From positions 1-64,000 of IMG/VR virus record IMGVR_UViG_3300007747_000009: a stretch of DNA of 64,000 bases; one strand, written 5' to 3'. The position numbers and the translations under genes were made by a program. Each line of letters opens with the position of its first letter. Positions within the stretch are counted from its first letter, which is position 1. Source of the DNA: a virus. Its lineage: Duplodnaviria > Caudoviricetes. The notes below the pieces were generated by a model. The model searched no databases, was not told where the DNA came from, and worked only from the letters and a program-made list of their open reading frames with translations. Shown here in pieces: positions 13,220 to 31,816 of this stretch.

Positions 13220-13265
13220 AACAAAGAGAAATTTGTAGCCCACAGGGTGCGGGAGTGCGTCCATA
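13220..13265 (+). ncRNA. CCC-AYA-GGG motif copy 1 (putative small RNA)
   Basis: TTGACA(13186)-16-TATAAT; CAAA-GAGAAA-TTTG hairpin; core TAGCCCACAGGGTG 13236-13249. Confidence 0.55.
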
Positions 13266-13281
13266 TTTTTTTAAATGCGAA

Positions 13282-13296
13282 TGAGAATCATTTTCA
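13282..13296. promoter_or_regulatory. Fur-box-like site
   Basis: TGAGAAT-C-ATTTTCA between two convergent motif copies. Confidence 0.55.
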
Positions 13297-13297
13297 A

Positions 13298-13346
13298 TTG
13301 TGGACGGATCCCCGCACCCTGTGGGTTAGTGACTTTCTCGTCTTTA
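13298..13346 (-). ncRNA. CCC-AYA-GGG motif copy 2 (putative small RNA)
   Basis: Minus-strand TATAAT at 13354-13359; GAC-GAGAAA-GTC hairpin; core CTAACCCACAGGGTG 13315-13329. Confidence 0.55.
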
Positions 13347-13484
13347 TGTATTCATTATACTGGACTGAAGAATTAACACAAGCTTTATTTTCATTTAAAT
13401 GAAAAATAATTTAGTACTTGCATTCTCTTATCATTATAGTACAATAGCTGTTATTGAAACGATACACTATTAAGGAAAGCAATC

Positions 13485-13892
13485 ATGTACACAAAACAAC
13501 AACAATACATTGCAGTACTGGAAGTTTTAAATCTGATGAAAGCATGTTTTGATGCAAACGATACTTATGTATGCATTGATGGCAAGTCTTTTAACTTGCA
13601 TAAGACTTTTGGTATTTGCTGGCATGTATACGCCAGCACGCCAGCCCCTGAGATCAGCGGTATAGATCATACCTATTTGGAACAAGCCTTTTTAGATATG
13701 GGATTAAAGCCTACTCTGCCGGTCGAATCACAATTACAATATGAATCCGTATCCCAATGGGATTTACATAATAGTACTCGTTACGATCGTTATAATCCTA
13801 GTACTGAAGTAGGGCAGACACGTATTAAATTAGTAAATGATTTGATTAAGTACTTTAATAATGTATTGACTACTGAATCAGAAGCTGTATAA
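13485..13892 (+). CDS. Hypothetical protein (early cassette)
   Basis: TTGCAT-17-TACAAT promoter; TAAGGA RBS. Confidence 0.75.
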   Translation: MYTKQQQYIAVLEVLNLMKACFDANDTYVCIDGKSFNLHKTFGICWHVYASTPAPEISGIDHTYLEQAFLDMGLKPTLPVESQLQYESVSQWDLHNSTRYDRYNPSTEVGQTRIKLVNDLIKYFNNVLTTESEAV

Positions 13893-13897
13893 TAGTT

Positions 13898-13932
13898 TGC
13901 ATAGGGGGAAATGATTCCCCCGTTATTAAGGA
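13898..13932 (+). promoter_or_regulatory. 5' leader hairpin plus RBS (PeSL-like; about 12 copies in 13.9-32.2 kb)
   Basis: TTGCATA-GGGGGAA-n4-6-TTCCCCC-nnTATTAAGGAA. Related copies at about 15251, 16101, 17768, 18568, 19368, 19674, 22836, 25811, 29939, 31078 and 32170. Confidence 0.75.
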
Positions 13933-13940
13933 ATAGAATT

Positions 13941-14174
13941 ATGTCTCAATTTAAAGTTACGGTAAGTACAATCGCTGTAGGTCAAGCTGGATCTGATAAG
14001 CTTTTGGTACTGTCAGAGTTACCGGACAATAAAGCGGTAACAGCAATTGAATCATGGGTTACTGAGATCTATGGTAACAATGTATCAGTCAGTACTGAAA
14101 AGCTGAATAACAGCAATGAAGTGTATGTGAATGATCTGTATCATGGAAAGTATCATAAAGTAATTTGTCTGTAA
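13941..14174 (+). CDS. Hypothetical protein
   Basis: Start re-set to MSQFKV after the leader hairpin and RBS. Confidence 0.7.
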   Translation: MSQFKVTVSTIAVGQAGSDKLLVLSELPDNKAVTAIESWVTEIYGNNVSVSTEKLNNSNEVYVNDLYHGKYHKVICL

Positions 14175-14180
14175 TTATTA

Positions 14181-14216
14181 AAAGTACTTGCCTATACGTT
14201 GCGAGTACTTTATAAT
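14181..14216 (+). promoter_or_regulatory. Palindromic sigma70 promoter AAAGTACTTGC-n9-GCGAGTACTTT-ATAAT (about 8 copies)
   Basis: The -35 TTGCNN lies in the left arm and TATAAT abuts the right arm. Other copies at about 15508, 21431, 21777, 23661, 24054, 24281 and 30928 (variant). Confidence 0.75.
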
Positions 14217-14246
14217 ACTTATATACAAACAAACGAGGATATACAG

Positions 14247-14645
14247 ATGGACGCATTAACAAAGACTAAGCAAGTGAACGCAGCATTAACCGCAGCACTT
14301 GCCCAGATTGCTAAGGATCATAATCTGGACTCACTGAAGCTCGGCAAACTAACCTATTCGGATAATGGTTTTAGTGCAACGGTATCCGCTATTTTTGCCG
14401 GTGGCGATTCTAAAGATATGGCTAAGTTACGTCGCAATGCGTTTATCTATGGCTTGAAAGAAAGCGTATGTAATGCTGTGATCACTTACAATAAACAGGA
14501 ATTTAAAGTTATTGGTATGCGTAATACCAAGATGGTATTGGAGCAGGCTGGTAAAACATACACCGCACCGATTGAATCAGTACTGAATGCTATTAAAGTA
14601 TATCATCCTGAGCATGTTAATTCAATCAAAGTTAACGGAAAATAA
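14247..14645 (+). CDS. Hypothetical protein
   Basis: Start re-set to MDALTK; GAGGA RBS. Confidence 0.75.
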   Translation: MDALTKTKQVNAALTAALAQIAKDHNLDSLKLGKLTYSDNGFSATVSAIFAGGDSKDMAKLRRNAFIYGLKESVCNAVITYNKQEFKVIGMRNTKMVLEQAGKTYTAPIESVLNAIKVYHPEHVNSIKVNGK

Positions 14646-14694
14646 TTACAAAATAAAGGTTGACACTAGTCAGCCTTTTTGTTATTCTATATGT

Positions 14695-14742
14695 ACTCCA
14701 GCGAAATGGACTAACCCTTTAGGGTGCGGAGATCCGTCTTGA
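14695..14742 (+). ncRNA. CCC-AYA-GGG motif copy 3 (putative small RNA)
   Basis: Terminator-promoter at 14655-14688; TCCA-GCGAAA-TGGA hairpin; core CTAACCCTTTAGGGTG 14711-14726. Confidence 0.55.
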
Positions 14743-14831
14743 TTTTGTATATTTCTTTTTATTGAAATAGTACTTGATTATTGAGTACAAACATGTATAA
14801 TTATTGTATCGAAACTAATGGGAGTACTGAA

Positions 14832-15224
14832 ATGGGGCAAAATCTGTATGGCGATCCGCTTAATTCTGCACTTGATTATCTTAATAACAATGTGAATTTT
14901 AAAGCGGGTACTGGGAAAAAGTACAAAACAGAAGAAGATTACTATCAGGCTTTTGTGGAAGCGGGATCCCTATCAGGAGGGCGTAGTTTCTATCCTAGTG
15001 ATGAACTACGGCGTCGGTTATGGAAACGTGCTCATGCTCGTTATAGCAAAGATTTTCCTAAGCCTTATCACAAGTTGCATACACTTGATGAAATGGTAGC
15101 AGAAATACATTTACGTGGCGTGGCGTATTTTAGTAATAGTTATCACGGGAAAGATCTTTCACGCATTGCACTGATGAAAGAAGCAGTTGACGTTTATTTT
15201 AAAGAAAAGAAAAATAAAGGTTGA
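14832..15224 (+). CDS. Hypothetical protein
   Basis: Start re-set to MGQNLY; GGGAG RBS; own promoter. Confidence 0.7.
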   Translation: MGQNLYGDPLNSALDYLNNNVNFKAGTGKKYKTEEDYYQAFVEAGSLSGGRSFYPSDELRRRLWKRAHARYSKDFPKPYHKLHTLDEMVAEIHLRGVAYFSNSYHGKDLSRIALMKEAVDVYFKEKKNKG

Positions 15225-15297
15225 CTATAAAGTCTAGTACTGTATAATTGTTTGCATAGGGGGAAACATCTTCCCCCCGCTATTAAGGAAAGTACTA

Positions 15298-15501
15298 ATG
15301 ACACGTCAAGACGCAATCGCAGACCATAAAGCAATCTGGATCGATTTCTGCAAAGGTAACAAATCGGCAAGGACTGATGTTGTTATGTTCAATGAAGATT
15401 GGCATAATCATATTGATCGCTTACATCGTAGCGGTGAAATCACAGACCGTCAAGCTGATACGTGGGATAACTATCCGATCCCTAAGCGTTATAAAGATTA
15501 A
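15298..15501 (+). CDS. Hypothetical protein
   Basis: Promoter, leader hairpin and RBS cassette. Confidence 0.75.
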   Translation: MTRQDAIADHKAIWIDFCKGNKSARTDVVMFNEDWHNHIDRLHRSGEITDRQADTWDNYPIPKRYKD

Positions 15502-15583
15502 TTATTAAAAGTACTTGCATAACCTTAGCGAGTACTTTATAATACTTATATTGAGTTAACTAATACTATTAAGGAAAAGTACA

Positions 15584-16066
15584 ATGAAAAAGTTTACTAT
15601 CTGGTCTGCTAAAACAAATACTGATTATGATATGGCAGTACGTGACGGGGCAACCTATCCAGTACTGTTACCTGATAATGTTTCCGTTGAATCGGTTACC
15701 CGCATTCTTGAAACCGTTGGGGATTGTTATAGCGGCGAAAAAGAACATTTCAAGTTCACATGGGAAACTGTTCCTGATGCTTTCGCATTGTTCACTTATA
15801 CTCAAAGTACTGAGGACTTAGTACGTGCTGGCGTGGGCGTGTTCCCTTTGTTTGACAATCGCAGTACTCATGATTTGAAAGAATCAGATTTTATTCAGTT
15901 CGTGCGTAGTGAAGTGAACGTCTTGTCCGTCCGTCCGGTTAAAGCGAATGGGCGTACTACGTTCCATTACTTTAATTCACAAGATCAGCAGTGTATTCTT
16001 GAGATCACGAAAACGAAAACTATCACGCCAGAACTCGCAGAACAACTGAAAGAATTAAATCTTTAA
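15584..16066 (+). CDS. Hypothetical protein
   Basis: Palindromic promoter; TAAGGA RBS. Confidence 0.75.
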   Translation: MKKFTIWSAKTNTDYDMAVRDGATYPVLLPDNVSVESVTRILETVGDCYSGEKEHFKFTWETVPDAFALFTYTQSTEDLVRAGVGVFPLFDNRSTHDLKESDFIQFVRSEVNVLSVRPVKANGRTTFHYFNSQDQQCILEITKTKTITPELAEQLKELNL

Positions 16067-16146
16067 AGTACTTGACTATCTCATTCAGTCCAGTATAATT
16101 GTTTGCATAGGGGGAAACATCTTCCCCCGCTATTAAGGAAAAGATT

Positions 16147-16446
16147 ATGGGATTATCTATCACTATCAATCGCCCAGTGTGGTTGTCTGAAGAACTTGAA
16201 CTGGAATTCGATGTAACTGTCAATAGTAATTCAACTGATGAGTTGATCCGTGATGTTACTGTGTACAAGTTCAATGATGTAGTGGTGAATATCAATCCAG
16301 TACTGGAAGCATTATCAACTGGTTTATTCCCTGTACAGATTGGGGAATTCAGTATTGATGAATCAGCGGCTAACACAATGGAAATGATCATTGTGGACGC
16401 TAATCAAGCACTGATCGCGTCGATCCGTGCTATCACAACACTGTAA
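16147..16446 (+). CDS. Hypothetical acidic protein
   Basis: Promoter, leader hairpin and RBS cassette. Confidence 0.75.
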   Translation: MGLSITINRPVWLSEELELEFDVTVNSNSTDELIRDVTVYKFNDVVVNINPVLEALSTGLFPVQIGEFSIDESAANTMEMIIVDANQALIASIRAITTL

Positions 16447-16455
16447 GGGGAAAGC

Positions 16456-16593
16456 ATGTTCAAGTTATTGGGTGTAGTTGTATTGGTTGCGGTTGTTGCA
16501 ATTGGTATTGATATGTACCGCAACGGTACGAAAACCGTTACCGTTGAAAACGGTAAGACTACCACGGTTTACTCATACCACACAACATGGTAG
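16456..16593 (+). CDS. Small membrane-anchored protein (45 aa)
   Basis: MFKLLGVVVLVAVVAIG...; GGGG RBS; followed by a terminator. Confidence 0.6.
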   Translation: MFKLLGVVVLVAVVAIGIDMYRNGTKTVTVENGKTTTVYSYHTTW

Positions 16594-16606
16594 TATAGCA
16601 GAAAAT

Positions 16607-16634
16607 CGGGAGGCTGTAAAGCTTCCCATTTTTT
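16607..16634. terminator. Intrinsic terminator
   Basis: GGGAGGCT-gtaa-AGCTTCCC then T tract. Confidence 0.7.
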
Positions 16635-16652
16635 AGTACTCAAACACTTTTA

Positions 16653-16700
16653 TATAGATACACTCCAGCACCCTATGGGTTAGTGAGTTTCGCCTCAATG
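16653..16700 (-). ncRNA. CCC-AYA-GGG motif copy 4 (putative small RNA)
   Basis: Minus-strand TTGACA-17-TATTAT; GAG-GCGAAA-CTC hairpin; core 16669-16683; points into the terminator at 16607. Confidence 0.6.
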
Positions 16701-16944
16701 AATACATAATACTACACCAGAAAACTTCTGTCAATACTTTATTTCGATAAAATACGTGCATAATCATTCAGTACTGAATCAATTAATGAATAGTATTAGG
16801 TACTTTAAGCGGGTTAAATGAATGAATAAGCACATAAAAAAGCTCTAGGGTAAGTGCCTTGCGTTTTTGCTATTTTTAGTAATATTTGCATTATTTGATT
16901 AAAAGTACTTGACGGGGTGCGTGAAGTACTATAATATGTATCAC

Positions 16945-17020
16945 ATCAGGCGGGGATAACGAGTTAAGTTATCTAAAGTAGACAAGTCAGTAAGTCGCAC
17001 GAACAACTGACCCCGACGGA
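16945..17020 (+). ncRNA. Putative multi-stem small RNA or structured leader
   Basis: Promoter TTGACG..TATAAT at 16909-16935. Pairings CGGG/CCCG, GATAAC/GTTATC and GTCAGT/ACTGAC. The next gene has its own promoter at 17041. Confidence 0.4.
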
Positions 17021-17124
17021 AAAAAGATTTAAAATAAGTATTGACAGACACGCGGAAATATAAGATAATGACTGCGTAGACAAGAAAACAACTAAACTAA
17101 CTTAAACTTTAAGAGGATTTAAAA

Positions 17125-17673
17125 ATGACTACTCCTAACACTGCTGTTGAAACTACTGCTGTAACTGCAACCCGCGTAACTTTCAAATCTGCTTTACTCG
17201 CAGGTGATGTTAAAGGGCTTGCGTCAATCCTCGCGGATCTTGGTACTGATAAAGCGGGCGTCCAGAAATTGGGCTTGACTTTCTCCCTTGCGGTTAAAGA
17301 CGCACAGGAAGTACTCAAAGCACGCCAGAAAGCAATTGATGACGCAGCCGCGAATATCCAGAAAGAAAAAGAAAACATGGTTAAATTCTTGATGGATACC
17401 GTAGACGGATTGGGTATGGATCTCGATACCGCACAGATCGCCGCTGATGCAGCAATCGCGAAAAAGTACAACACAGTATCGGACAAAAAGAAATATACTT
17501 TCCCACGCGTAGCTGTAAACGTTGGCGGTAAAGTGTACGAAATGCAAACATCCGGTAACGTAATTCAAGTACTTAAAGACGCAATGAAAGCGACGGGCTT
17601 GACTACTCATAAAGAATTTATCCTTGCTCATGCAGTGGATAAAGAAGCCGCTGCCGCCGCTTTCGCTGAATAA
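17125..17673 (+). CDS. H-NS/StpA-like nucleoid-associated protein (divergent)
   Basis: AAANIQKEKENMVKFLMDTVDGLGMD parallels the H-NS coiled coil [25 protein letters not shown]. C-terminal KKKY...SGNVIQVLKDAMKATG..KEFIL parallels AKY...QGRTPAVIKKAMDEQG..DDFLI. Confidence 0.5.
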   Translation: MTTPNTAVETTAVTATRVTFKSALLAGDVKGLASILADLGTDKAGVQKLGLTFSLAVKDAQEVLKARQKAIDDAAANIQKEKENMVKFLMDTVDGLGMDLDTAQIAADAAIAKKYNTVSDKKKYTFPRVAVNVGGKVYEMQTSGNVIQVLKDAMKATGLTTHKEFILAHAVDKEAAAAAFAE

Positions 17674-17697
17674 GCCTAGCAGGTTTAAAGAGTAAAG

Positions 17698-17722
17698 AAA
17701 ATCCCCGCAATGCGGGGATTTT
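17698..17722. terminator. Intrinsic terminator
   Basis: AAAATCCCCGC-aat-GCGGGGATTTT. Confidence 0.8.
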
Positions 17723-17812
17723 GCTGTTTAAAGTACTTGCAAAGTAATCTCAATGATGTATAATACTTTGCATAGGGGAAACAACTTCCCCCACTAATTA
17801 AGAGAATATATT

Positions 17813-18178
17813 ATGACAAATCTCAATATTATGGTGCAAGCTTATATTACCGCGATGCATTGGTCTAGTACTGATAGTAATGGGGATCCACTTGATAATT
17901 ATCCTACGTCACAGGAAGGAAAAGACAATGCGGCAACTACCTGTAATACTTTCCTGAAAGTACATGGCAATGATCTCAATGTAGTAATGGGCTTGCATCC
18001 GAACTATGGTTACAGTGAAGCGGGGCATGACCTGTTCCTTACAAGAGAGGGACACGGTGCGGGATTCTGGGATCGTGGTCTGGGTCATTATGGAGACGTG
18101 TTCACAAAGTACTCTGAAAGTATTGGTGAAGCTGATCCATATGTTGGTGATGATGGTTATGTGTACGTGAATGTTTAA
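17813..18178 (+). CDS. Conserved-type phage hypothetical protein
   Basis: GHDLFLTREGHGAGFWDRG motif; cassette promoter. Confidence 0.75.
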   Translation: MTNLNIMVQAYITAMHWSSTDSNGDPLDNYPTSQEGKDNAATTCNTFLKVHGNDLNVVMGLHPNYGYSEAGHDLFLTREGHGAGFWDRGLGHYGDVFTKYSESIGEADPYVGDDGYVYVNV

Positions 18179-18261
18179 AAGTTTTAGTCCAGTACTTGAC
18201 AATAGACTCGAGTACTGGCATAATAACTTTATTGAAACGAAACACTATTAAGGAAAGTACA

Positions 18262-18534
18262 ATGACTAAATTATTAAGCCGTGATGAAATTTTGGTAGTA
18301 CTGACTACTAACCTACAAGAATGGAAGCGACACGCAGACGTATCCGATGCACAGGATCTCAATGATGAATTGACTGAGGATGATATTAGTACAATTATAT
18401 CCCCTGAATTTTATGATGATATTCATAGTATGGATGATACATGGAACGTATTAGAAAAGCACTTCCTCGACACTGAGCTAGACATTTACACGCGGGATAC
18501 TTTTATTTTAATTCACAACATATATAACAATTAG
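18262..18534 (+). CDS. Hypothetical acidic protein
   Basis: Start re-set to MTKLLS; TTGACA-17-CATAAT promoter. Confidence 0.7.
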   Translation: MTKLLSRDEILVVLTTNLQEWKRHADVSDAQDLNDELTEDDISTIISPEFYDDIHSMDDTWNVLEKHFLDTELDIYTRDTFILIHNIYNN

Positions 18535-18612
18535 TACTTGCATTATCTTATCAGTACTGTATAATTGTTTGCATAGGGGGAAACATCTTCCCCCGCTATT
18601 AAGGAAAAGATT

Positions 18613-18816
18613 ATGTTATCACTGATCGAATTAAAAGCACTGTACAACGCTCACAAGTACAATGAACTATACAAAGAAGTACGGCGATATGGTACTATCA
18701 CGAATGACGTTGAACATGAAACGGTTCGCGTTATACACATAACGTATTATAACACGTTTTGGGATTTTGAGCTAGTTAAAGGTGAAGTAGTTCACGCTGG
18801 CTATTGTACTAAGTAA
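18613..18816 (+). CDS. Hypothetical protein
   Basis: Promoter, leader hairpin and RBS cassette. Confidence 0.7.
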   Translation: MLSLIELKALYNAHKYNELYKEVRRYGTITNDVEHETVRVIHITYYNTFWDFELVKGEVVHAGYCTK

Positions 18817-18825
18817 GGTTGAATA

Positions 18826-19086
18826 ATGGCTGTTGGATTTGCTAAAGACGGGGCAGAACAAAACGAGATTCTAGCGGTCGTGGAGGCCGCTGTAAGCCAC
18901 GCAAGAAAACAGCTTGGTGATGGTAGTACTGAATCGCTTACACACTGCCTCGATTGTTCTAGCCCTATTCCTGAGCGTCGCAGAGCATTGGTTAATGGTT
19001 GCAAGTACTGCGTAGAATGTCAATCACAGTATGATAGTACTTTTAAAAGAGATCCGCGTAATTGTTGGCATAGGAGTATGAGATGA
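18826..19086 (+). CDS. TraR/DksA family C4 zinc-finger protein (YbiI-like)
   Basis: MAVGFAKDGAEQNEI...HCLDCSSPIPERRRALVNGCKYCVECQ. Confidence 0.9.
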   Translation: MAVGFAKDGAEQNEILAVVEAAVSHARKQLGDGSTESLTHCLDCSSPIPERRRALVNGCKYCVECQSQYDSTFKRDPRNCWHRSMR

Positions 19087-19226
19087 TCTTTCAGTATAAC
19101 AAAGGTTGCTGCTCACTTAAAGGCTTTTATGCGGTATATTCTGACGGGGTAAACTATCGTTATCGGTTTGTCAAGTACTTTGTTTAAGGGGAGAGATCCC
19201 CTGTTTATTTGTACAGTACTAAAACC

Positions 19227-19270
19227 TATAGACGGACTGCTACACCCTATGGGCTTGTTTTTGTCTATGC
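19227..19270 (-). ncRNA. CCC-AYA-GGG motif copy 5 (putative small RNA)
   Basis: Minus-strand TTGACA-17-CATAAT; core CAAGCCCATAGGGTG 19243-19257; points into the hairpin at 19187-19203. Confidence 0.55.
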
Positions 19271-19414
19271 GTGTATTATGCCAGTACTGAATGAGGTTGT
19301 CAACATCTTTTTTCATTTAATTATTTGAAAATAGTTGTTGACTTACTTTTGGATTAGCGTATAATTGTTTGCATAGAGGGAAACAACTTCCCTCACTATT
19401 AAGGAAATAACAAT

Positions 19415-19636
19415 ATGTCTCGATATGTAATGTCAGTATTCAGTACTGCAAATGTCACTACTGGTAAAACCACTTATTACAAAATGGTGTGTGATGTGCC
19501 ACGTCGGGTATCAAAAGAAAACTTTGATAGCCTGTGTCATCAATCTAATCGTTCTGATAGTTACAGGACTGAAATGAATGGCAACTATATACGCCAGTAC
19601 AAAAGCATATACTTTAATTCAGTACCGAATGTTTAA
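19415..19636 (+). CDS. Hypothetical protein
   Basis: Cassette with leader hairpin. Confidence 0.7.
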   Translation: MSRYVMSVFSTANVTTGKTTYYKMVCDVPRRVSKENFDSLCHQSNRSDSYRTEMNGNYIRQYKSIYFNSVPNV

Positions 19637-19722
19637 AAAGTACTTGCAAAGTAATCTCAGTACTGTATAATTGTTTACATAGAGGGGAAAATGGTTCCCC
19701 TCCTTATTAAGAGAATAGTATC

Positions 19723-20061
19723 ATGAATAAATTCGAAAATGAAATCGTAGTTAAAGAATATGTTAACGGTTTTGGCTGGATTGATTCCTGTACTGAAAGC
19801 AATATCAAGGCAGCCCGCGAAACAAAAAAAGCATATCTGGCTGAAGGTGTAGGCTGTATGATCGTTCGTCGCCGCGTGTTGAACCGCACGAATGAAATGG
19901 TTAATGTAGTACTGAATCATTGCCGTGATTATTTCCGTGCTAATGGTAAATGGCCTGAATCGTTTAAGTACTATTTCCGCAACGGTAAAGTTAAATTTAC
20001 TTTGTCAACTAAGGAAATGCAAGAAATTTTAGGTTATGATTCCCGCTTAGTGGAAGCATAA
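19723..20061 (+). CDS. Hypothetical protein
   Basis: Cassette with leader hairpin. Confidence 0.7.
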   Translation: MNKFENEIVVKEYVNGFGWIDSCTESNIKAARETKKAYLAEGVGCMIVRRRVLNRTNEMVNVVLNHCRDYFRANGKWPESFKYYFRNGKVKFTLSTKEMQEILGYDSRLVEA

Positions 20062-20124
20062 AAGTACTTGACACATAACGGGGGTATGATACAATATCCC
20101 CACATTAAGCAAAGAGGAAAAGCA

Positions 20125-24520: not shown

Positions 24521-24541
24521 AACGAATAGGAAAAGATTGAC

Positions 24542-24739: not shown

Positions 24740-24790
24740 TATAGCTACATTTCCACACCCCAAGGGTTAGTGACTTTCTCGTCTTTATGT
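24740..24790 (-). ncRNA. CCC-AYA-GGG motif copy 9 (putative small RNA)
   Basis: Minus-strand TATAAT; GAC-GAGAAA-GTC; core CTAACCCTTGGGGTG 24756-24770. Confidence 0.5.
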
Positions 24791-24850
24791 ATTCATTATA
24801 CAGGAATGGCTGGTGCTGGTATAATTACTATATCGAAACGGGAGGAACTT

Positions 24851-24991
24851 ATGATTAAGCCAGTTGACGCAATACCGCGTATGTACTACAATACATACAA
24901 GCCTAGCGACATTAGGCGTAAAGAAAAAGAATTAAAAGAGATTCAAGAAAATCAAAAAAGTACTGGACACCAAATCGATATCAGAGTATAG
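24851..24991 (+). CDS. Small hypothetical protein
   Basis: GGAGG RBS; start MIKPVD. Confidence 0.55.
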   Translation: MIKPVDAIPRMYYNTYKPSDIRRKEKELKEIQENQKSTGHQIDIRV

Positions 24992-25032
24992 TACTTACAT
25001 CAACCACACAAACCACTACAAGGAAATACATC

Positions 25033-25479
25033 ATGACTATTACTTCTACTTTCTTCACAGGCCGTGCCGCTGCCCGAACTGCTAAAGCTGAATTAGGTGG
25101 CAAGATCATTGATAACGGTGCTGGTGCTGAGACTGGCAAGCGTTGGGAACTCCAACACGAAGTACTGGCAGTAGCTGGTGCTGGTGAATCGCAGACCCAG
25201 CCAGATGAGTTGATCGGCGTACCATCAGTGGGTACAAGTGCTGTACTGGATGATCTAGCTGGTGCTGTATTCATCGATGATGTAAGTACTGCGATGGATG
25301 AACTCGCTGCGATTGAACAGGCACAACAAGCACAGCGTGAAGTACTGGCAAAGCCTAAGAATCTGCGTTATACAGGCACCCGCAAACTTGTATTGACGGA
25401 TCGCAAAAACAAAGCAATCAATGTTATTGTGAAGCGTAGTACAATCGCAGCCCGCTTAACCGCACACATGGCTAAGTGA
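25033..25479 (+). CDS. Hypothetical protein
   Basis: AAGGA RBS; 148 aa. Confidence 0.75.
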   Translation: MTITSTFFTGRAAARTAKAELGGKIIDNGAGAETGKRWELQHEVLAVAGAGESQTQPDELIGVPSVGTSAVLDDLAGAVFIDDVSTAMDELAAIEQAQQAQREVLAKPKNLRYTGTRKLVLTDRKNKAINVIVKRSTIAARLTAHMAK

Positions 25480-25558
25480 ATCAAAGGGGGAGCAATCCCC
25501 CGAACCCATTAAGAGAAAAGACATGAAAAAGCAAGTACAACTAATTAACGGGGAGTTT

Positions 25559-25774
25559 ATGAAACTACATTATAAACCCCAACAAAAAATTATTGACAAA
25601 GCCACAAAAGCCGCAAATGGTTTACTGGCTGGTAATATCAAAGCTCGCAAGCTCAGTAACGGATTGTTTTCAGTACTGGACGTGTCGCGAACTGAGCGTA
25701 TAGTAATTGATAAGGAAAAGCAACTACATTTAATGTCCCATGAGAAATATAATGATTTCGTGAATCAACGTTAA
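25559..25774 (+). CDS. Possible ParE/RelE-like small protein
   Basis: ARKL...VLDVSRTERIV...LMSHEKYN pattern; GGGGAG RBS. Confidence 0.4.
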   Translation: MKLHYKPQQKIIDKATKAANGLLAGNIKARKLSNGLFSVLDVSRTERIVIDKEKQLHLMSHEKYNDFVNQR

Positions 25775-25851
25775 AAGTACTTGCAATATAATTTCTGTAC
25801 TGTATAATGATTTGCATAGGGAAATGGTTCCCTAGCAATTGAGGATATACC

Positions 25852-26175
25852 ATGAAACATATTTTGTCACTTCGCCAGCGAATGGCTCTTTCTGTACTGA
25901 ATGACGCGTTACTCGAGGCGGCTGAATCTGGCTTACTTGATACGCTGCAAATCGATTCTAATTCGATGGGCGTAGTACTGGCAGGCGTGCAAAACTGGCA
26001 TTCTCAGGAATTCGAAAACGAGTATCATATCACGTATACACATAACGACAAGGAAGATACTTGCGTTATCCGTGCTACATCTGGCAGCACCGCATTGATG
26101 TTATTTTATGCTGATTTTGGTGGGCAGATTGTCAAGGTGTATAATCGGACTTTAAACATTGAAATCGATGCTTAA
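25852..26175 (+). CDS. Hypothetical protein
   Basis: Cassette with leader hairpin. Confidence 0.7.
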   Translation: MKHILSLRQRMALSVLNDALLEAAESGLLDTLQIDSNSMGVVLAGVQNWHSQEFENEYHITYTHNDKEDTCVIRATSGSTALMLFYADFGGQIVKVYNRTLNIEIDA

Positions 26176-26246
26176 AGTACTTGCATAATCTCAGGATCCT
26201 CGTATAATACATCTATTAAATAGAGTACATTATACGGGGAAACAAA

Positions 26247-26393
26247 ATGATTCGCACACTGAAACGATACAATGGTATCACTCTCTCTTTACATGGCGAA
26301 ACTTTTGTGATAGCAAGTGGAAGAAATAAAATTAGGACTAATAATTCAGTAATAGCAATTCAGTACTACAATAACTTTCTATTAGGGCGATAA
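26247..26393 (+). CDS. Small hypothetical protein (48 aa)
   Basis: Own promoter; GGGGA RBS. Confidence 0.5.
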   Translation: MIRTLKRYNGITLSLHGETFVIASGRNKIRTNNSVIAIQYYNNFLLGR

Positions 26394-26394
26394 C

Positions 26395-26622
26395 ATGTTA
26401 CAATATAAAGATACAGTACTCACAGCAAGCTGGAATGGCGAAGTCGTAGATGATGAATACGGTGAAGAAATCAAGTATAAGATTGTAGTAATGGAAGATG
26501 GCAAACCTGAAAGCGTTATCATTCAGTTAGACGGCAAGCCTTATGATCCTGCTACACTGAAAAGCTTACTTGACAAAGCCGAGAAAGTAAAGAAAGCAGC
26601 AGTAGAATTTAAAAGAATTTAA
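26395..26622 (+). CDS. Hypothetical protein
   Basis: 75 aa ORF before a terminator-promoter. Confidence 0.7.
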   Translation: MLQYKDTVLTASWNGEVVDDEYGEEIKYKIVVMEDGKPESVIIQLDGKPYDPATLKSLLDKAEKVKKAAVEFKRI

Positions 26623-26669
26623 ATTAAAAAAAGGGTTGACTTCGGTCAGCCCTTTCTGTATTATGTATA

Positions 26670-26713
26670 CATCGAAACAAACTAACCCATAGGGTGTATA
26701 AATATATCTATAA
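26670..26713 (+). ncRNA. CCC-AYA-GGG motif copy 10
   Basis: Terminator-promoter at 26628-26664; core 26682-26696; overlaps TATAAATA at 26697-26704. Confidence 0.5.
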
Positions 26714-26733
26714 TAAACATAAGAGGATGTTAT

Positions 26734-27270
26734 ATGCCAGAACAATTTAAAAGCAAAAATGGTGCCACCTTAGCAGGTCACAGTGCAAAATGGGCAGATG
26801 AAAACCGCAGAAAGAACTCACATCAAGCCGGTCAGGGGTCACGGGGTTCACGCAATCAAGGAACAGGATTAGCAGGGAAAGCAAATACTACCACTGACAC
26901 TGTAGTCGATACAACTACCATGAGCCAAGAGGATAAACTCAAGTACTTCAACTCTCTAGGATTACTAGGAGCACAGACCAGTACTAAGCAGCCTCCTAAA
27001 GCAGCACCACACACACCACCTGTACAAGATGCTAAATCACTTGTCAGTACTTTACAAGGCCAATGGGGTGATGTATTCCAGTCTCCTAACCACGTCAGAC
27101 AGCTTATAAGCGATTTAAAATCAGTCCCGCCTGCTAAGTTTAAGAAAGCAGTGCAAGCCGCTTACAGAGCCACACAAGAGGCTACAATTGACATGAAAGA
27201 TCCATCAGACATATATGATTATATCAGTTCTGCCATTGAGCAGTACACATATGATGGTGATGATTTTTAA
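26734..27270 (+). CDS. Hypothetical protein with basic disordered N-terminus
   Basis: GAGGA RBS; 178 aa. Confidence 0.75.
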   Translation: MPEQFKSKNGATLAGHSAKWADENRRKNSHQAGQGSRGSRNQGTGLAGKANTTTDTVVDTTTMSQEDKLKYFNSLGLLGAQTSTKQPPKAAPHTPPVQDAKSLVSTLQGQWGDVFQSPNHVRQLISDLKSVPPAKFKKAVQAAYRATQEATIDMKDPSDIYDYISSAIEQYTYDGDDF

Positions 27271-27344
27271 TAAAAAAGGGGTTGACTTAGGTTGGCCCCT
27301 TTGCTATTCTATCAGTACTGAAAGACAACCGAGAGTATACACAC

Positions 27345-27464
27345 ATGAAAAAGTTATTTGGATTCATCATTGTTTCTATTATTATGCTGCGAGTCCATAG
27401 CATGACTTCTTATCCATTACTGGCAATCATTGCAGTATTGTCTTGTCTGTTAATCTGGAAATAA
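27345..27464 (+). CDS. Small membrane peptide (39 aa)
   Basis: Follows the terminator-promoter at 27273-27310; hydrophobic. Confidence 0.45.
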   Translation: MKKLFGFIIVSIIMLRVHSMTSYPLLAIIAVLSCLLIWK

Positions 27465-27480
27465 AACATGAGATCATTAT

Positions 27481-27765
27481 ATGAAATACTTACTAATGCT
27501 AATTGCATTGTTTAGTACTCCAGTACTAGCTACAACGATGACTTGCTCTAGTGGACAGACCACGGCGATATTCATTGTTAAAGAAGGTTTATTACTTGAT
27601 ACTAATGAAAACGTATTAGCACCTGAAATACGTCCAAATACTTATCGGGGTGAAGATATCAACGGTACTGTATTGTATACCGTAAATTCATCAGATGATA
27701 GTACTAATATTCTCATGCAGTTCGATGGGATCACGAAAGAATATACATGCCTATCCAAGTACTAA
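27481..27765 (+). CDS. Putative secreted/periplasmic protein
   Basis: Signal peptide MKYLLMLIALFSTPVLA; two Cys. Confidence 0.7.
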   Translation: MKYLLMLIALFSTPVLATTMTCSSGQTTAIFIVKEGLLLDTNENVLAPEIRPNTYRGEDINGTVLYTVNSSDDSTNILMQFDGITKEYTCLSKY

Positions 27766-27947
27766 TTACCCTTAAAGGGTTAAAGCCTGATGCTGATGAG
27801 TATGAAACTCATGTAACATCTATTACAGGCGAAGACATGATTGATGTGGATGCAAATATAACCGCATATATCTATGAATGGCGAAACAAATACGGTTTCT
27901 ATAAAATGAAATATATTAATAAAAGGATTCTCCCATGCGATAACTAA
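27747..27947 (+). CDS. Hypothetical protein
   Basis: ORF within the operon. Confidence 0.55.
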   Translation: MPIQVLITLKGLKPDADEYETHVTSITGEDMIDVDANITAYIYEWRNKYGFYKMKYINKRILPCDN

Positions 27948-27959
27948 TAGGAGAATAGA

Positions 27960-28184
27960 ATGGCATCGCTACCAACGCAATCAATAATACTGGATGGGCA
28001 CCGATTTAAAATGACTGAAGGGATAGTACAAAGTACTAACACGCAACTCATCATCGATAAGCTCACAAAGGAGCAATGCGATCGGGTACTGCGTGAAGCT
28101 GATAAGATTAAAAGTACTGTACAATCGAACCCAGTCAAAAAGCAATTACTACAAGGAATTATCATGGGGTGTTTACGTAAATGA
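27960..28184 (+). CDS. Hypothetical protein
   Basis: AGGAG RBS. Confidence 0.7.
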   Translation: MASLPTQSIILDGHRFKMTEGIVQSTNTQLIIDKLTKEQCDRVLREADKIKSTVQSNPVKKQLLQGIIMGCLRK

Positions 28185-28333
28185 TCTATCAGCTAGTGAT
28201 TGCAAAACTTAAAGTACTTGATGACCTCGCCGCGATCAAGTACGCAACCGATAACGCTTTCGAATTAGTAGAGCTTAGTGATAAGGGTTACAATATCGAT
28301 GAATTAGTACAGGTTTGTTTGAATAATAAATAA
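28181..28333 (+). CDS. Small hypothetical protein (50 aa)
   Basis: ATGA overlap with the upstream stop. Confidence 0.5.
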   Translation: MIYQLVIAKLKVLDDLAAIKYATDNAFELVELSDKGYNIDELVQVCLNNK

Positions 28334-28358
28334 TCCTGTAACAACAGGAGAGTTTATA

Positions 28359-28628
28359 ATGATTCAAACCGATATTAATAAGATATTACAATGGAACAAG
28401 ATTCCACTTGACCAACTACCAGTAATATTAAAAGAGCAAGGGTTCCAGTTTGTAAAATCATTCAGTACTGATGAACATAGAATCTTTGTATCACAGGATG
28501 GTAAATTTAAGATCATCATACACAAAACAGTGGGCAAAGTATACAGTACTAAAAGCAATCAATGCTTACATACTTTCGCCGTAGTATTGCCTATGCCTAA
28601 ACTGAATGATGTAAAGCGTGCTCAATAA
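28359..28628 (+). CDS. Hypothetical protein
   Basis: AGGAG RBS. Confidence 0.7.
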   Translation: MIQTDINKILQWNKIPLDQLPVILKEQGFQFVKSFSTDEHRIFVSQDGKFKIIIHKTVGKVYSTKSNQCLHTFAVVLPMPKLNDVKRAQ

Positions 28629-28696
28629 ACAAAAAAAGGGTTGACTAAGGTCAGCCCTTTTGCTATTCTACATACATCGAAACGAAGGATACTATC

Positions 28697-29275
28697 ATGA
28701 ACAAACATATCGAAGTACTGAATACACTGAAGTCTAATCGAGAAATGATCAAGTACTGCAAAGCTAACTTACAATTGTTAGGTTCTGGCTCATCTCGATT
28801 GGTCTTTGCTCTTAATGATAAATTGGTTATTAAGGTTGCAAAGGGAACAATTGGTGTTAAACAGAACAGTACTGAGATTAAAGTATGGGCTATGGTAGAT
28901 TATACTTTTGAGTACTATAAACGTTCATTCGCTAAGTTATATACTACTATGTGCCACTGGATGGATTTCTTTGTAGTGATGGAACGTGTTGATACTAAGA
29001 ACAATCCATATAAGCGTAAATTCAACTTCAACACTCGCCGGTCATTCGATACTAACCGTAAAGAAATGGATCCTAAGATCCGCCAGATTTACACGCATGT
29101 ATCAGTGATAGATGATGTAACGTTTACATTGAACCTTCCTGATCTATGTGCTCGCAACGTAGGTGTAAACAATCGCGGAGTACTGAAAGTTTGCGATTAT
29201 GGTTTTGACAAAGCAGCTTATAAGCTTATGTGTAATGGTGTCAAACAAGTACAAACATTATATGTAAAAGATTGA
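28697..29275 (+). CDS. Protein kinase-like (Ser/Thr kinase fold)
   Basis: Gly loop LGSGSSRLVF, VIKVA lysine, alphaC Glu, hinge VMERV, catalytic DLCARNV, DYG (DFG equivalent). Confidence 0.8.
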   Translation: MNKHIEVLNTLKSNREMIKYCKANLQLLGSGSSRLVFALNDKLVIKVAKGTIGVKQNSTEIKVWAMVDYTFEYYKRSFAKLYTTMCHWMDFFVVMERVDTKNNPYKRKFNFNTRRSFDTNRKEMDPKIRQIYTHVSVIDDVTFTLNLPDLCARNVGVNNRGVLKVCDYGFDKAAYKLMCNGVKQVQTLYVKD

Positions 29276-29329
29276 CAACATCGGCTGGTGCTGTATAATA
29301 ACTACATCAGCCACTAAAAGGAAAGTACA

Positions 29330-29548
29330 ATGTTTAAAGTCCGCAAATGGTCAAACACCAACGCTAAACCATACGATGTTGTTTATCTGGATAAGGTTAA
29401 CAACAATCAACACTATCAAGCCGGTGTCGATTTCAGTACTGAAGCAGAGGCAGAAGTATACCGCAAAGCATTAGTACAGTCAGCCAGTGACGTCGGCGTG
29501 AATCATATATTAGATACATGGCCTACCGACGGAGCCGTGGAAGAATAA
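29330..29548 (+). CDS. Hypothetical protein
   Basis: TTGACA..TATAAT promoter; AAGGA RBS. Confidence 0.7.
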   Translation: MFKVRKWSNTNAKPYDVVYLDKVNNNQHYQAGVDFSTEAEAEVYRKALVQSASDVGVNHILDTWPTDGAVEE

Positions 29549-29594
29549 TTAAAAAAGGGTTGACTACGGTCAGCCCTTTTGCTATTATGTATTC

Positions 29595-29636
29595 ATCGAA
29601 ACAATCTAACCCATAGGGTGCGGCAATCCGTCTATA
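29595..29636 (+). ncRNA. CCC-AYA-GGG motif copy 11 (putative small RNA)
   Basis: Terminator-promoter at 29552-29588; core 29606-29620. Confidence 0.55.
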
Positions 29637-29729
29637 CGATTTTAGTACTTAAAAATAAATGAAAATAGTACTTGATTTGTTTGTTCGTTATGGTATTATG
29701 TCTGTACCGAAACAAACGAGGGTAAAGAA

Positions 29730-29900
29730 ATGGAAACATTACTTATTCAGTTACTGGCAGCCTTTTGTGAGAATTTAAACATTCCTATGGAAAGTGCTGA
29801 TGAATTGTTATGTAATGAATTAGGGTTTGATACTCCTAACCCTGAGAACGTGGCATGGCTTAAAGCATACATTGCTTTATGGGATGCATCCAACATTTAA
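29730..29900 (+). CDS. Small hypothetical protein (56 aa)
   Basis: Own promoter; GAGG RBS; METLLIQLLA... Confidence 0.6.
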   Translation: METLLIQLLAAFCENLNIPMESADELLCNELGFDTPNPENVAWLKAYIALWDASNI

Positions 29901-29987
29901 AATAGTACTTGCATTAGTCTTTGAGTCCCGTATAATGTTTTACATAGAGAGGAGAATTGTTCTCCACTCAATTAAGGAAATAAAATC

Positions 29988-30296
29988 ATGCAACAAGTTG
30001 AGCGAGATATCGTATCGTTTTTACTGAATACTGTAATCAACAACGGCTGGACTGTTACACTAAATGATGGTGAAGAAGACGTGTTGCACAACAGCGATGA
30101 TCATGATCTTATCATGAAAGAACTCAACTCAACAGGGGAAGATTATCTCAGAGTTTATGATGGTAAGGATCGCATTGGTACTATTCACTTGGTGTATAAC
30201 GGTGATGCGGATGTTATTTGTAACCATACATCGAATGATATCATTAATGATTTGATGACTGCCATCGATGGTTACATTGAAATCATGGGCGAGTAA
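29988..30296 (+). CDS. Hypothetical acidic protein
   Basis: Cassette with leader hairpin. Confidence 0.75.
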   Translation: MQQVERDIVSFLLNTVINNGWTVTLNDGEEDVLHNSDDHDLIMKELNSTGEDYLRVYDGKDRIGTIHLVYNGDADVICNHTSNDIINDLMTAIDGYIEIMGE

Positions 30297-30371
30297 TTAA
30301 GTACTAGATAGTCCTTGACTAATGTTGAGGACTATCCTATAATACTTATATACCAACACGGGGGATTAAAA

Positions 30372-30719
30372 ATGAAATACGATGTTACTTATCGATCCGA
30401 TCTATATGACGCAGGGCGAGACTGGGAAGGTAATGCTGTCACTGGCTATGAGCATACAGTGATGCTTGAACTCGAGAACGGTCAGCGGTTCCTACTGAAT
30501 ACATCAGCGTACCGTGATACGAAAGTACTCAATGGTGAAGTACTTAACTTTTCAGAAGAAGCATTAACGGTTACTAACAACCGCGTTGCACGTGTTGAAG
30601 CTGCTATGGCTCAAGGTACTAAGCTTAATAAATTGTACTGGGAAGAAACAGATCCCATCTATGGTACTGAGTTTAAAGATATGTTACCAATGGATAACAT
30701 TCCGTTGTTTAAACCATGA
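30372..30719 (+). CDS. Hypothetical protein
   Basis: Start re-set to MKYDVT; GGGGG RBS. Confidence 0.7.
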   Translation: MKYDVTYRSDLYDAGRDWEGNAVTGYEHTVMLELENGQRFLLNTSAYRDTKVLNGEVLNFSEEALTVTNNRVARVEAAMAQGTKLNKLYWEETDPIYGTEFKDMLPMDNIPLFKP

Positions 30720-30727
30720 GGTCTGAT

Positions 30728-30922
30728 ATGAAAAACATTACTAAGCTGGCTTACACCGTTATTGATATATCTCGTCGCTCTAGTATTAATGATGCCCTTG
30801 AGCATGTACTAGGTGAACATACTGAGAAGAATGCCAATACTTATCAGGCAGTCTTTGACGAAGTACAAAACATTTTACATCCTCATGGTACTGGTGAAGA
30901 TAGTATACACTGCGACTTCTAA
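30728..30922 (+). CDS. Hypothetical protein
   Basis: GAGGT RBS. Confidence 0.6.
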   Translation: MKNITKLAYTVIDISRRSSINDALEHVLGEHTEKNANTYQAVFDEVQNILHPHGTGEDSIHCDF

Positions 30923-30968
30923 TATAGAAAGTACTTGCATTCGTGTGAGTACTTTGTTATTATATAGT

Positions 30969-31016
30969 CATTGGCAGATACGCTACTAACCTACAAGGTG
31001 CGGAAGTATATATGTA
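30969..31016 (+). ncRNA. CCC-AYA-GGG motif copy 12 (variant CTAACCTACAAGGTG)
   Basis: TTGCAT-17-TATTAT; compensatory C-G to T-A change in the ACCC/GGGT stem; core 30986-31000. Confidence 0.55.
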
Positions 31017-31129
31017 ATTTAAAGAAATAGAAATTAATAAAAGTACTTGCACACTACTACACATACGCGTATAATGTTTTACATCGAGAGGGGAAAATGG
31101 TTCTACTCTCAAACGTTAAGGAAATGATT

Positions 31130-31657
31130 ATGTACTCTTCAGTTCAAACTATGGTTAACGTCAATGCTGCTACTGGTATCGCGTACGGTTACATCAACGC
31201 GAACAACGTAAACAGTGAAGTACTGAATGATATCTTCTGTAATGGCATCGACGCTCGACGTTTAGAGTGTGACATTGATTTCGCCGTGCGTTTCGGTTTC
31301 AAGACTCCAGACACTAACGAGGGTGAAGTGTACTCAGTATACCTAGCTCGTGTGCAAGATGATCTGTTAGACTTCCTGAATGCAAAACAGGATGAAGAAC
31401 AAGACTTCGTGGAGACGGTAGAATCTCATGACGCAGAGTTCAACGAGTATACAGGTGATATCCACGTTGCTACCATCGATGATACCACTGTTATCTATAA
31501 CACTGATAACAATACTATCTGTGTGATGGATAGTAAGACGGTAGGCAAGTACTTTCTTTGTTCCCCTTGCTGCCCTAACGCTGGTGATCTCGACTCCGCT
31601 GGTGGCGATGTAGACACGTACGATGTACCTGCTAGCTGGCGTGAACTGAATTACTAA
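31130..31657 (+). CDS. Hypothetical acidic protein with CSPCCPNAGDL motif
   Basis: Cassette with leader hairpin; Cys cluster. Confidence 0.75.
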   Translation: MYSSVQTMVNVNAATGIAYGYINANNVNSEVLNDIFCNGIDARRLECDIDFAVRFGFKTPDTNEGEVYSVYLARVQDDLLDFLNAKQDEEQDFVETVESHDAEFNEYTGDIHVATIDDTTVIYNTDNNTICVMDSKTVGKYFLCSPCCPNAGDLDSAGGDVDTYDVPASWRELNY

Positions 31658-31773
31658 TACACAGAGCTAAAAGCTCTTACCAAAGGCGTTGCGGATCGCG
31701 TCGAAGTACTGTAACACAAAAAGAATTAAAAGAAAGGGTTGACTTCGGTCGGCCCTTTTGCTATTATATATCC

Positions 31774-31816
31774 CATAGCAAAACACTAACCCACAGGGTG
31801 CATAGATCCATCTGTA
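31774..31816 (+). ncRNA. CCC-AYA-GGG motif copy 13 (putative small RNA)
   Basis: Terminator-promoter at 31733-31767; core CTAACCCACAGGGTG 31786-31800. Confidence 0.55.

Follow-up and report, generated by a model that had tools for sequence, protein, structure and literature searches.

Introduction

Promoter-early stem-loop (PeSL) cassettes of T4-type phages (Arbiol et al., 2010, PMC2839356; Comeau et al., 2014, PMC4122927) are among the closest described counterparts of the element analysed here, which occurs in 13 copies within a stretch of 64,000 nucleotides (the window) of the Caudoviricetes virus record IMGVR_UViG_3300007747_000009. Each copy comprises a promoter, a small first hairpin (hairpin 1), a core that can form a second hairpin (hairpin 2) and a conserved tail, and together the copies very probably represent a genuine family of promoter-coupled structured RNAs. 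PeSLs and the window units are both short repeated blocks of a variable early region in which a terminator stem-loop is joined to a sigma70-type early promoter, in the window at six or seven of the 13 copies, and AAAGGGTTGAC-TTCG-GTCAGCCCTTT in the window is a hairpin of the type described by the PeSL stem consensus of nt-1/KVP40, A3-4G3-loop-C3T3-4 (PMC4122927). PeSLs, however, finish with the Shine–Dalgarno (SD) sequence and initiation codon of the gene that follows and have no conserved structured leader, whereas the core in the window would lie in transcribed RNA. The unit also follows hairpin-less promoters, occurs in both orientations, mostly stands before a second promoter and is confined to the direct terminal repeat (DTR). 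A PeSL-type ending is seen only at 26682+; five forward copies meet a second promoter first and five copies face away from genes.

Small hairpin RNAs just past early phage promoters are also known as lambda nut and HK022 put, and the GNGAAA loop of hairpin 1 recalls boxB. The hairpins in the window are much smaller than the HK022 put stems. They further differ from nut and put in that no boxA lies near any copy, one third of the copies have nothing to antiterminate and there are 7–13 copies rather than two. In 12185–33040 the boxA-type sequence GCTCTT[TA]A (CGCUCUUA-like) occurs once, at 28808 and away from the copies, the rrn boxA is absent at up to two mismatches, and ops (RfaH; GGCGGTAGnnTG) has a single match at up to one mismatch, at 17524 and outside any copy; the tails resemble ops only loosely.

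Sponge and decoy RNAs (CsrB/RsmZ, 6S RNA, phage RNA anti-CRISPRs and pseudo-ToxI) offer a third comparison, with many short conserved hairpins under strong promoters, and, in a parallel manner, an RNA that the phage makes ahead of any protein could be the first to act. In contrast to these systems the units are dispersed and not tandem, and they show no likeness to Rfam families or to Escherichia coli sequence. A CsrA/RsmA sponge is not suggested by the tails, of which 50 of 109 contain GGA, at most once per unit. Nor is an RNA anti-CRISPR suggested: no Rfam CRISPR-repeat family and no E. coli match were found, and the motif is the same in phages of different host genera. A resemblance to the type I-F CRISPR repeat (15 of 25 positions by eye) was unsupported by Rfam and was rejected.

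The Pseudomonas jumbo phage PA5oct, a distant relative, has a long DTR that is transcribed early and contains two highly expressed non-coding RNAs of 236 and 451 nt (PMC7318152). These RNAs differ from the present element in being single-copy and without a reported motif, and the covariance model described below finds no match in PA5oct at E ≤ 1. By analogy, the PA5oct data support the setting proposed here and not the mechanism.

The Rfam search proposed in the earlier note on this DNA matched no described family: Rfam 15 (cmscan, E ≤ 1, 12500–32500) gave six weak matches, none at its gathering score and none centred on a copy; the weak match to MicX (20.8 bits versus a gathering score of 75) spans the unit at 29581–29655. 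A blastn search of the core and tail against 5,426 E. coli genomes gave no match, and the element is thus not copied from host sequence. No published description was found by full-text search outside most subscription journals, with the core sequence searched on both strands. The promoter, transcript and repeat passages of the RaK2, CBB, fEgEco12 and PA5oct papers and of a 2026 jumbo-phage review do not describe the motif; for CBB, 18 RpoD-like promoters are listed that have UP elements and no downstream motif (PMC5259590), and the RaK2 paper does not treat promoters. The leader is an undescribed RNA attached to a known, PeSL-type hairpin–promoter cassette.

Genomic setting and distribution

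The window is part of a contig of 108.9 kb and can be assigned to a RaK2/121Q-like jumbo phage. Its DNA has only short matches elsewhere, to Salmonella phages 7t3 and Munch, Klebsiella phage fENko-Kae01, Escherichia 121Q-like phages, Serratia phage BF and Erwinia phages. In a blastn alignment with fENko-Kae01, window positions 12185–12272 correspond to its bases 1–91 and 32627–33095 to its 19325–19794, and the record of this phage annotates a DTR at 1–19736, from PhageTerm (∼20 kb). The alignment identifies what the earlier note had termed the early region as the terminal repeat, at about 12185–33040, so that the physical left genome end probably lies near 12185 and the inner end of the DTR near 33040. 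On the 5′ side of 12185 there are minus-strand genes that belong to the unique region, at its right end.

The pattern CTAACCCAYAGGGTG, with up to two mismatches allowed, has 12 matches in the window compared with 0.10 expected, and none of 100 shuffles reaches 12. The 13th copy, 14711+, has a four-nucleotide loop (CCCTTTAGGG); it is missed by the pattern and recovered by the covariance model. These are the 13 places named in the earlier note, and its statement that none lies outside 13–32 kb extends to the entire 108.9-kb contig, in which no copy was found outside 13.2–31.8 kb. The units are listed in Table 1.

Table 1. Motif units and associated features of the window. Unit coordinates run from the −10 box to the tail; bits are covariance-model matches; class B denotes the second promoter family described under Other features of the terminal repeat.
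Feature	Coordinates	Core	Strand	Bits	Remarks
DTR-equivalent stretch	12185..33040				Contains all motif copies; from blastn to fENko-Kae01
Unit 1	13206..13284	13235-13249	+	65.3	TTGACA-16-TATAAT at 13186-13213; forward half of convergent pair, ~1 kb from probable left genome end
Fur-box-like GCGAATGAGAATCATTTTC	13277-13295				Between cores of units 1 and 2
Unit 2	13280..13361	13315-13329	-	71.9	Backward half of convergent pair
Unit 3	14681..14761	CCC-TTTA-GGG (4-nt loop)	+		-35 within terminator hairpin 14655-14678; predicted fold has hairpins 1 and 2 and a CGG/CCG tail hairpin
Unit 4	16634..16713	16669-16683	-	81.2	Best model match; backward, into bidirectional terminator 16608-16627; predicted ~100-nt RNA (fold of 16598-16699 minus)
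Unit 5	19208..19282	19243-19257	-		Without hairpin 1; extended -10 TGGCATAAT; backward, into hairpin 19187-19202, which begins 40 nt past GGGTG
Unit 6	20679..20753	20704-20718	+		Hairpin 1 GCCG/CGGC; class-B promoter at 20762
Unit 7	22169..22249	22200-22214	+		-35 within terminator hairpin 22141-22168; class-B promoter at 22263
Unit 8	23302..23383	23337-23351	-		Backward, into hairpin 23274-23295; predicted ~107-nt RNA, fold z = -2.7
Unit 9	24721..24802	24756-24770	-		Loop UUG; into hairpin ~24689-24718; poor -35
Unit 10	26657..26731	26682-26696	+		Without hairpin 1; -35 within terminator hairpin 26630-26655; sole window copy serving as direct 5' UTR (SD and ATG at 26734)
Unit 11	29581..29655	29606-29620	+		-35 within terminator hairpin 29553-29580; class-B promoter at 29668
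Unit 12	30956..31035	30986-31000	+		Compensatory ACCU/AGGU stem; degenerate -35-like element within hairpin 30928-30955; class-B promoter at 31043
Unit 13	31760..31835	31786-31800	+		-35 within terminator hairpin 31732-31759

A covariance model built from the 13 window copies (R1) was run on the whole records (320–386 kb each) of 15 relatives, which include unclassified phages and members of at least four genera (Alcyoneusvirus, Asteriusvirus, Mimasvirus and Eneladusvirus). Each relative contains 7–12 copies in both orientations, and all matches at E ≤ 0.01 fall within one 17–23-kb block per repeat; where a record includes both repeats, the identical set of copies appears again at the other end. 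The unique DNA of the relatives (∼320 kb) gave no R1 match except one at E = 0.05. The block coincides with the annotated DTR in fENko-Kae01 and CBB and, in fEgEco12, with a repeat confirmed by restriction mapping (PMC13070987). BF, CBB, fENko-Kae01, Munch and the window share a convergent +/− pair that lies ∼1 kb inside the left end, and a Fur-box-like sequence often separates its cores.

The full alignment contains 150 copies, 140 of them distinct, from 16 phages; some of the counts below use a set of 109 copies. Promoter coupling, confinement to the DTR, covariation in hairpin 1, the RCCC-N3–4-GGGUG core and the YRUCY tail at fixed spacing all recur across this alignment, and core and tail are kept between genera in which the flanks are no longer alignable. 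When a single unit was used as a blastn query, 159 phage records matched in 632 places. Among these, KVP40-like Vibrio phages, Aeromonas phages and ∼145-kb enterobacterial phages match query bases 1–58 only, which are the terminator hairpin and promoter and not the motif. In those unrelated large phages a hairpin with an embedded TTGAC and a −10 box shows 80–93% identity over ∼35–55 nt, a hairpin–TTGAC–promoter design that is either widely shared or convergent.

Promoter and predicted start of transcription

In all 13 window copies a −10 box or the extended −10 TGGCATAAT ends 21–28 nt 5′ of the CCC (counted by eye for 19243−), and in most of them TTGAC(A/T) is found 16–17 bp further upstream, preceded by an A/T-rich stretch; 24756− lacks a good −35. 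The description in the earlier note, of a −10 box at this distance usually accompanied by TTGACA/T, is borne out. Overall, the distance from promoter to core is 19–31 nt. A conserved CA(T) occurs six bases past the −10 box, and the RNA is predicted to start at the A of this CAT. The unit promoters are recognizable as strong host-type sigma70 promoters with an A/T-rich upstream element.

A reading of the core as a −31 activator box, with TATA in the tail as the −10 of a second promoter, has suitable spacing (13 nt past GGGT). It was rejected, with TAnnnT present at the required place in only ∼40% of copies, as judged by eye from the sequences.

Hairpin 1

Hairpin 1 begins 2–6 nt past the predicted start and has a stem of 3–5 bp and an A-rich loop. 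Among the 140 distinct copies its three modelled pairs are standard in 98.5% of cells, compared with 5–59% when the partner is slid, with 43–64 double changes per pair; the observed covariation score was reached by none of 500 shuffles. The stems include GAC/GUC, GAG/CUC, UCCA/UGGA, GCCG/CGGC, CAAA/UUUG, AGCA/UGCU, GGC/GCC, GGAA/UUCC, GACG/CGUC and CCAC/GUGG, and the loops GNGAAA, AGAUAA and AGAACAA. Fitting of the alignment to the model favours structure, but the margin of the pairing far exceeds what such fitting could cause. The sequence of hairpin 1 thus shifts while its pairing is kept, which indicates selection on structure. The observation in the earlier note that a G(A/C)GAAA loop sits on different stems is in this way substantiated and much extended. 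About one fifth of the copies lack hairpin 1, yet keep an A-rich, GAAACAA-like 5′ end.

Hairpin 2 and the conserved tail

The core, RCCC-N3–4-GGGU, forms a hairpin with three near-invariant C–G pairs and an outer pair that is A–U in 84 copies and G–U in 47. A CCU/AGG double change is present in three copies that have two different loop types, from which at least two independent events can be counted; the compensatory change to ACCT/AGGT pointed out in the earlier note is therefore real, and two relatives carry the identical double change. The sequence of the loop is free (ACA, AUA, UAUA, ACC, UCAA, ACG, AUU, UUG and others) and is three or four nucleotides long, with both lengths in single genomes (for example window copy 14711, and BF). 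Downstream of it, 16 nt of tail are conserved at fixed spacing, with almost no insertions or deletions between core and tail in 150 copies, after which conservation drops to background.

The tail can pair with the same GGGUG that closes hairpin 2. Its positions 9–13 (Y, R, U, C, Y) are complementary to G, U, G, G and G of GGGUG in 680 of 700 cells (97%), one register from the pairing given in the earlier note. In 109 copies, purines are absent from position 9 and pyrimidines from position 10; the partners of G are only U or C and those of U only A or G. A seven-pair version of this helix is satisfied in 88.7% of cells compared with 29–58% in slide controls. Rare changes within GGGUG occur in four copies, and three of these keep or improve the alternative helix (U to C opposite G once, G to A opposite U twice), two of the three breaking hairpin 2. 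The earlier note had instead paired the loop AYA with the tail; this holds for copies 31786 and 30986 but the covariation fails in the relatives, where, among the 59 copies whose three-nucleotide loop has C at its centre, 49 have A and not G at the partner position, and an AYAG:CURU pairing was discarded.

Most of the sense-strand pairs are G–U, and on the opposite strand only ∼45% of GGGUG:YRUCY cells would pair (arithmetic from the sense-strand counts). If the constraint is one of pairing, it thus acts on the RNA read from the promoter and not on duplex DNA or a cruciform. This bears on an alternative in which about 30 bp (CCC-N3-GGG and the tail, at +25 to +55) form a DNA operator for a phage protein that blocks elongation and shuts off the immediate-early promoters, with hairpin 1 as a separate 5′ stabilizer. 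A palindromic core that is found only downstream of promoters of this class, whichever way they point, with a conserved stem sequence around a free centre as in many operators and a fixed core-to-tail spacing, is what such a site would look like. Half-sites that are 3 or 4 bp apart within single genomes, double changes that preserve pairing, and tail positions 9, 10 and 13 that vary only among letters which retain the sense-strand wobble with GGGUG argue the other way, and an operator is considered very unlikely.

Since GGGUG can join either hairpin 2 or the tail helix but not both at once, the RNA may be bistable. An arrangement of three segments that constrain one another would explain a frozen stem with a drifting loop. 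In 109 copies hairpin 2 has a mean energy of −3.8 kcal mol−1, and the best fold without RCCC a mean of −3.9 kcal mol−1, the latter being more stable in 62 of 109, while the five core pairs of GGGUG:YRUCY contribute a mean of about −0.3 kcal mol−1. Comparable cases are transcription attenuators and hok mRNA with its metastable 5′ hairpins, in that one strand has an upstream and a downstream partner and the 5′ helix would form first during transcription. The units differ from them in having no clear U tract past the downstream helix in forward copies, no leader peptide, no structure of the size of a ligand pocket and no uniform tail structure. An intrinsic-terminator attenuator is likewise not indicated, the weak alternative helix being followed by AUA... 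with weak U enrichment.

Two other readings of the tail were dropped. A mini-ORF (NUG-UAU-CUA-UAR) is contradicted by AUC-CGU in about one third of the copies and by a purine run that abuts the putative start codon, and SD-like pairing to the 3′ end of 16S rRNA is good only in copies with GGAGGUG.

Taken together, the alignment demonstrates at the level of sequence a promoter-coupled element that is under sense-strand selection and peculiar to the terminal repeat in this clade, the RaK2/121Q-like enterobacterial jumbo phages.

Orientation, terminators and neighbouring genes

Of 109 copies, 75 are oriented with the genes and 34 against them. In the window, minus-strand units 4, 5, 8 and 9 run into the terminator hairpin of the upstream plus-strand operon with no ORF following, as the earlier note had described, and the fifth, unit 2, converges on unit 1. 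About 20 of the 34 backward copies are followed by a G+C-rich hairpin that begins 40–42 nt past GGGTG, often with 5–7 U in the next 9 nt; in convergent pairs the partner's own core takes the place of this hairpin. Backward copies are predicted to yield an RNA of ∼100 nt without an ORF, ended by the terminator of the upstream operon.

Forward copies overlap or closely follow the terminator of the operon before them, and the next transcript should begin with their RNA. Five of the eight plus-strand window copies have a second promoter, GTACTTGNN-N16–17-TAnnnT, 42–48 nt later, in line with the claim that most plus copies precede a separate promoter, and only 26682+ runs directly into an SD sequence and ATG, so that most copies are indeed not direct 5′ untranslated regions (UTRs). 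Some DTR operons begin at promoters without the leader. At 27275–27346 a composite AAAGGGGTTGAC-TTAG-GTTGGCCCCTTT followed by TATTCT leads straight to a gene start with no motif, and the hairpin promoter and the leader are thus separable modules.

The element stands always at the start of a transcript at a set distance from its promoter, which could point to a leader acting in cis on the transcribing host RNA polymerase (RNAP), either by a pause at hairpin 2 or by direct binding of the RNA to the polymerase as in HK022 put. In the case of a pause, hairpin 2 would fold within the RNA exit channel and the promoter-proximal stop would fall ∼11 nt downstream, at the invariant Y–R step of the tail; with either mechanism factor loading or terminator resistance could follow. 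The tail counts are compatible with this: the last G of GGGUG, Y9 and R10 fit the elemental pause consensus G(−10)Y(−1)G/R(+1), with the hairpin ending at −11 as in the his pause, and the region is divided by many intrinsic terminators (32 terminator-like sites versus 12 expected). For the 34 copies that face away from genes into a terminator, however, antitermination would give only antisense RNA; some operons and the composite at 27275 lack the leader, boxA-like and ops-like sequences within 12185–33040 are found only at a distance from the copies, and the 19–31-nt distance from promoter to core is variable. A cis-acting leader is thus regarded as unlikely.

In six of the 13 window copies (seven if the degenerate element of unit 12 is included; hairpins in Table 1) the −35 is located within a terminator hairpin, which is not seen in the backward copies, 13235+ or 20704+. 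This is the PeSL design (PMC4122927) and raises the alternative of a recombination joint, in which blocks of ∼100 bp serve swaps of early genes, are kept alike by gene conversion and have no function as RNA. The hairpin–promoter part shared with KVP40-like Vibrio, Aeromonas and other large phages (query bases 1–58 only), and flanking genes that are unrelated ORFans with no Pfam match, would agree with such exchange. Gene conversion within a genome cannot, however, explain a core and tail kept across genera with unalignable flanks, the covariation of hairpin 1 indicates selection on structure, and the backward copies flank no cassette gene. A joint without RNA function is accordingly held to be highly improbable. 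A regular-expression test for Chi sites was negative.

T4 oriF and oriG and the T7 origin are promoter-dependent, and they provide the model for a further alternative, in which the units prime replication or form R-loops in the terminal repeat, with GGGUG seeding an RNA–DNA hybrid ahead of A+T-rich DNA. Each unit does consist of a strong promoter, a G cluster in the RNA and then A+T-rich sequence, and copies are found in both orientations and in the DTR only. The 7–13 origins per repeat that this would imply are far above known phage usage, the G cluster is taken up in two alternative RNA helices, and backward copies meet a terminator after 40 nt, which makes the proposal barely credible.

Proposed function

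The interpretation tentatively preferred overall is that each unit is a cassette for an abundant immediate-early non-coding RNA which is bound by protein and does not regulate the adjacent gene. About one third of the copies serve no gene and some operons have no leader, so the useful product is most likely the RNA itself. Transcription from the strong host-type sigma70 promoter would start at the A of CAT, and the first ∼45–55 nt would comprise hairpin 1, hairpin 2 and the 16-nt tail. With 7–12 sites per repeat (13 in the window), present about twice per genome, the phage could produce large amounts of this RNA immediately after entry, and a host or phage protein might bind the conserved, possibly bistable module, which would then act as a sponge, decoy or cofactor. 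Action in trans through a protein is, taken by itself, possible but far from assured. The earlier proposal of a multicopy, promoter-coupled, structured non-coding element whose strand is set by its promoter stands, given the covariation of hairpin 1, the sense-only wobble pairs and the gene-less backward copies; the discrete 50–90-nt RNAs that the same proposal has made on entry, and their roles as decoy, nut-like element or primer, are predictions.

Several points weigh against the preferred interpretation of a protein-bound immediate-early RNA. The start sites, ends and abundance of the RNA are all predictions. The GGGUG arm is invariant, which makes support for the alternative helix one-sided and the shuffle control uninformative for it; the inner tail pairs are inconsistent (48 copies allow the seven-base-pair version, ten prefer a separate CGG/CCG hairpin and 50 allow neither), and a uniform switch is not established. 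Folding energies are ordinary (z from +0.6 to −2.7 for eight window RNAs) and no better than those of shuffled sequences, so that the structure is argued from covariation and conservation, and thermodynamic stability was dropped as evidence for the fold. A conserved stem with a free loop is unusual for a protein-binding hairpin. A Pfam search at E ≤ 0.01 assigned no family to 20 DTR ORFs (94–192 amino acids, 13485–30296), among them the ORF at 17125–17673, and provided no candidate RNA-binding partner among them. Most forward copies would also read through into genes and may have a role in cis.

A more far-reaching proposal is that the element is a new multicopy, immediate-early RNA, small and bistable, which up to ∼25 strong promoters per genome would supply within seconds after the DNA enters, and which reprograms host RNAP without a protein or neutralizes an RNA-binding host factor or a defence protein. 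The host factor or defence protein would then be specific to Enterobacterales and would be hit before any phage protein exists. This proposal is doubtful.

Other features of the terminal repeat

A second promoter family, class B (GTACTTGCA-N16-(G)TATAAT, often with an inner AGTAC), has 27 copies at window positions 13414–32170. All of them are on the plus (gene) strand, within the terminal repeat and directly before genes, so that most genes of the region have a promoter of this family, and they could form a separate temporal class, for example one dependent on an activator.

The palindrome AGTACT occurs 383 times in the 108.9-kb contig, compared with ∼37 expected from base composition, and is densest at 12000–32000; nine other palindromic hexamers, eight of them with the composition of AGTACT, occur 14–59 times each. 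AGTACT is found in class-B promoters and in terminator stems, and 51 of 109 copies have it 15–42 nt 3′ of their tail. The hexamer may mark a protein site, a site of modification or a signal connected with restriction.

A Fur-box-like array (GATAATCATT, GAGAATGATTCTCA) lies at 12906–13040, about 0.7 kb from the probable left genome end. Across the relatives, Fur-like boxes are present 12–27 nt past GGGTG in 14 of 109 copies.

Significance

RaK2/121Q-like jumbo phages are under development against E. coli, Klebsiella, Salmonella and plant pathogens, and the first minutes of their infection are uncharted. No other non-coding feature of their terminal repeat is as conserved as the leader RNA, which outlasts the alignability of the neighbouring genes; by its placement it could be the first and most abundant phage product. 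If it merely stabilizes transcripts or marks recombination joints, the finding would be a modest extension of the PeSL idea. Its description would add an RNA family to the databases and a terminal-repeat marker for unfinished assemblies, and identification of its partner would reveal how the take-over of the host begins.

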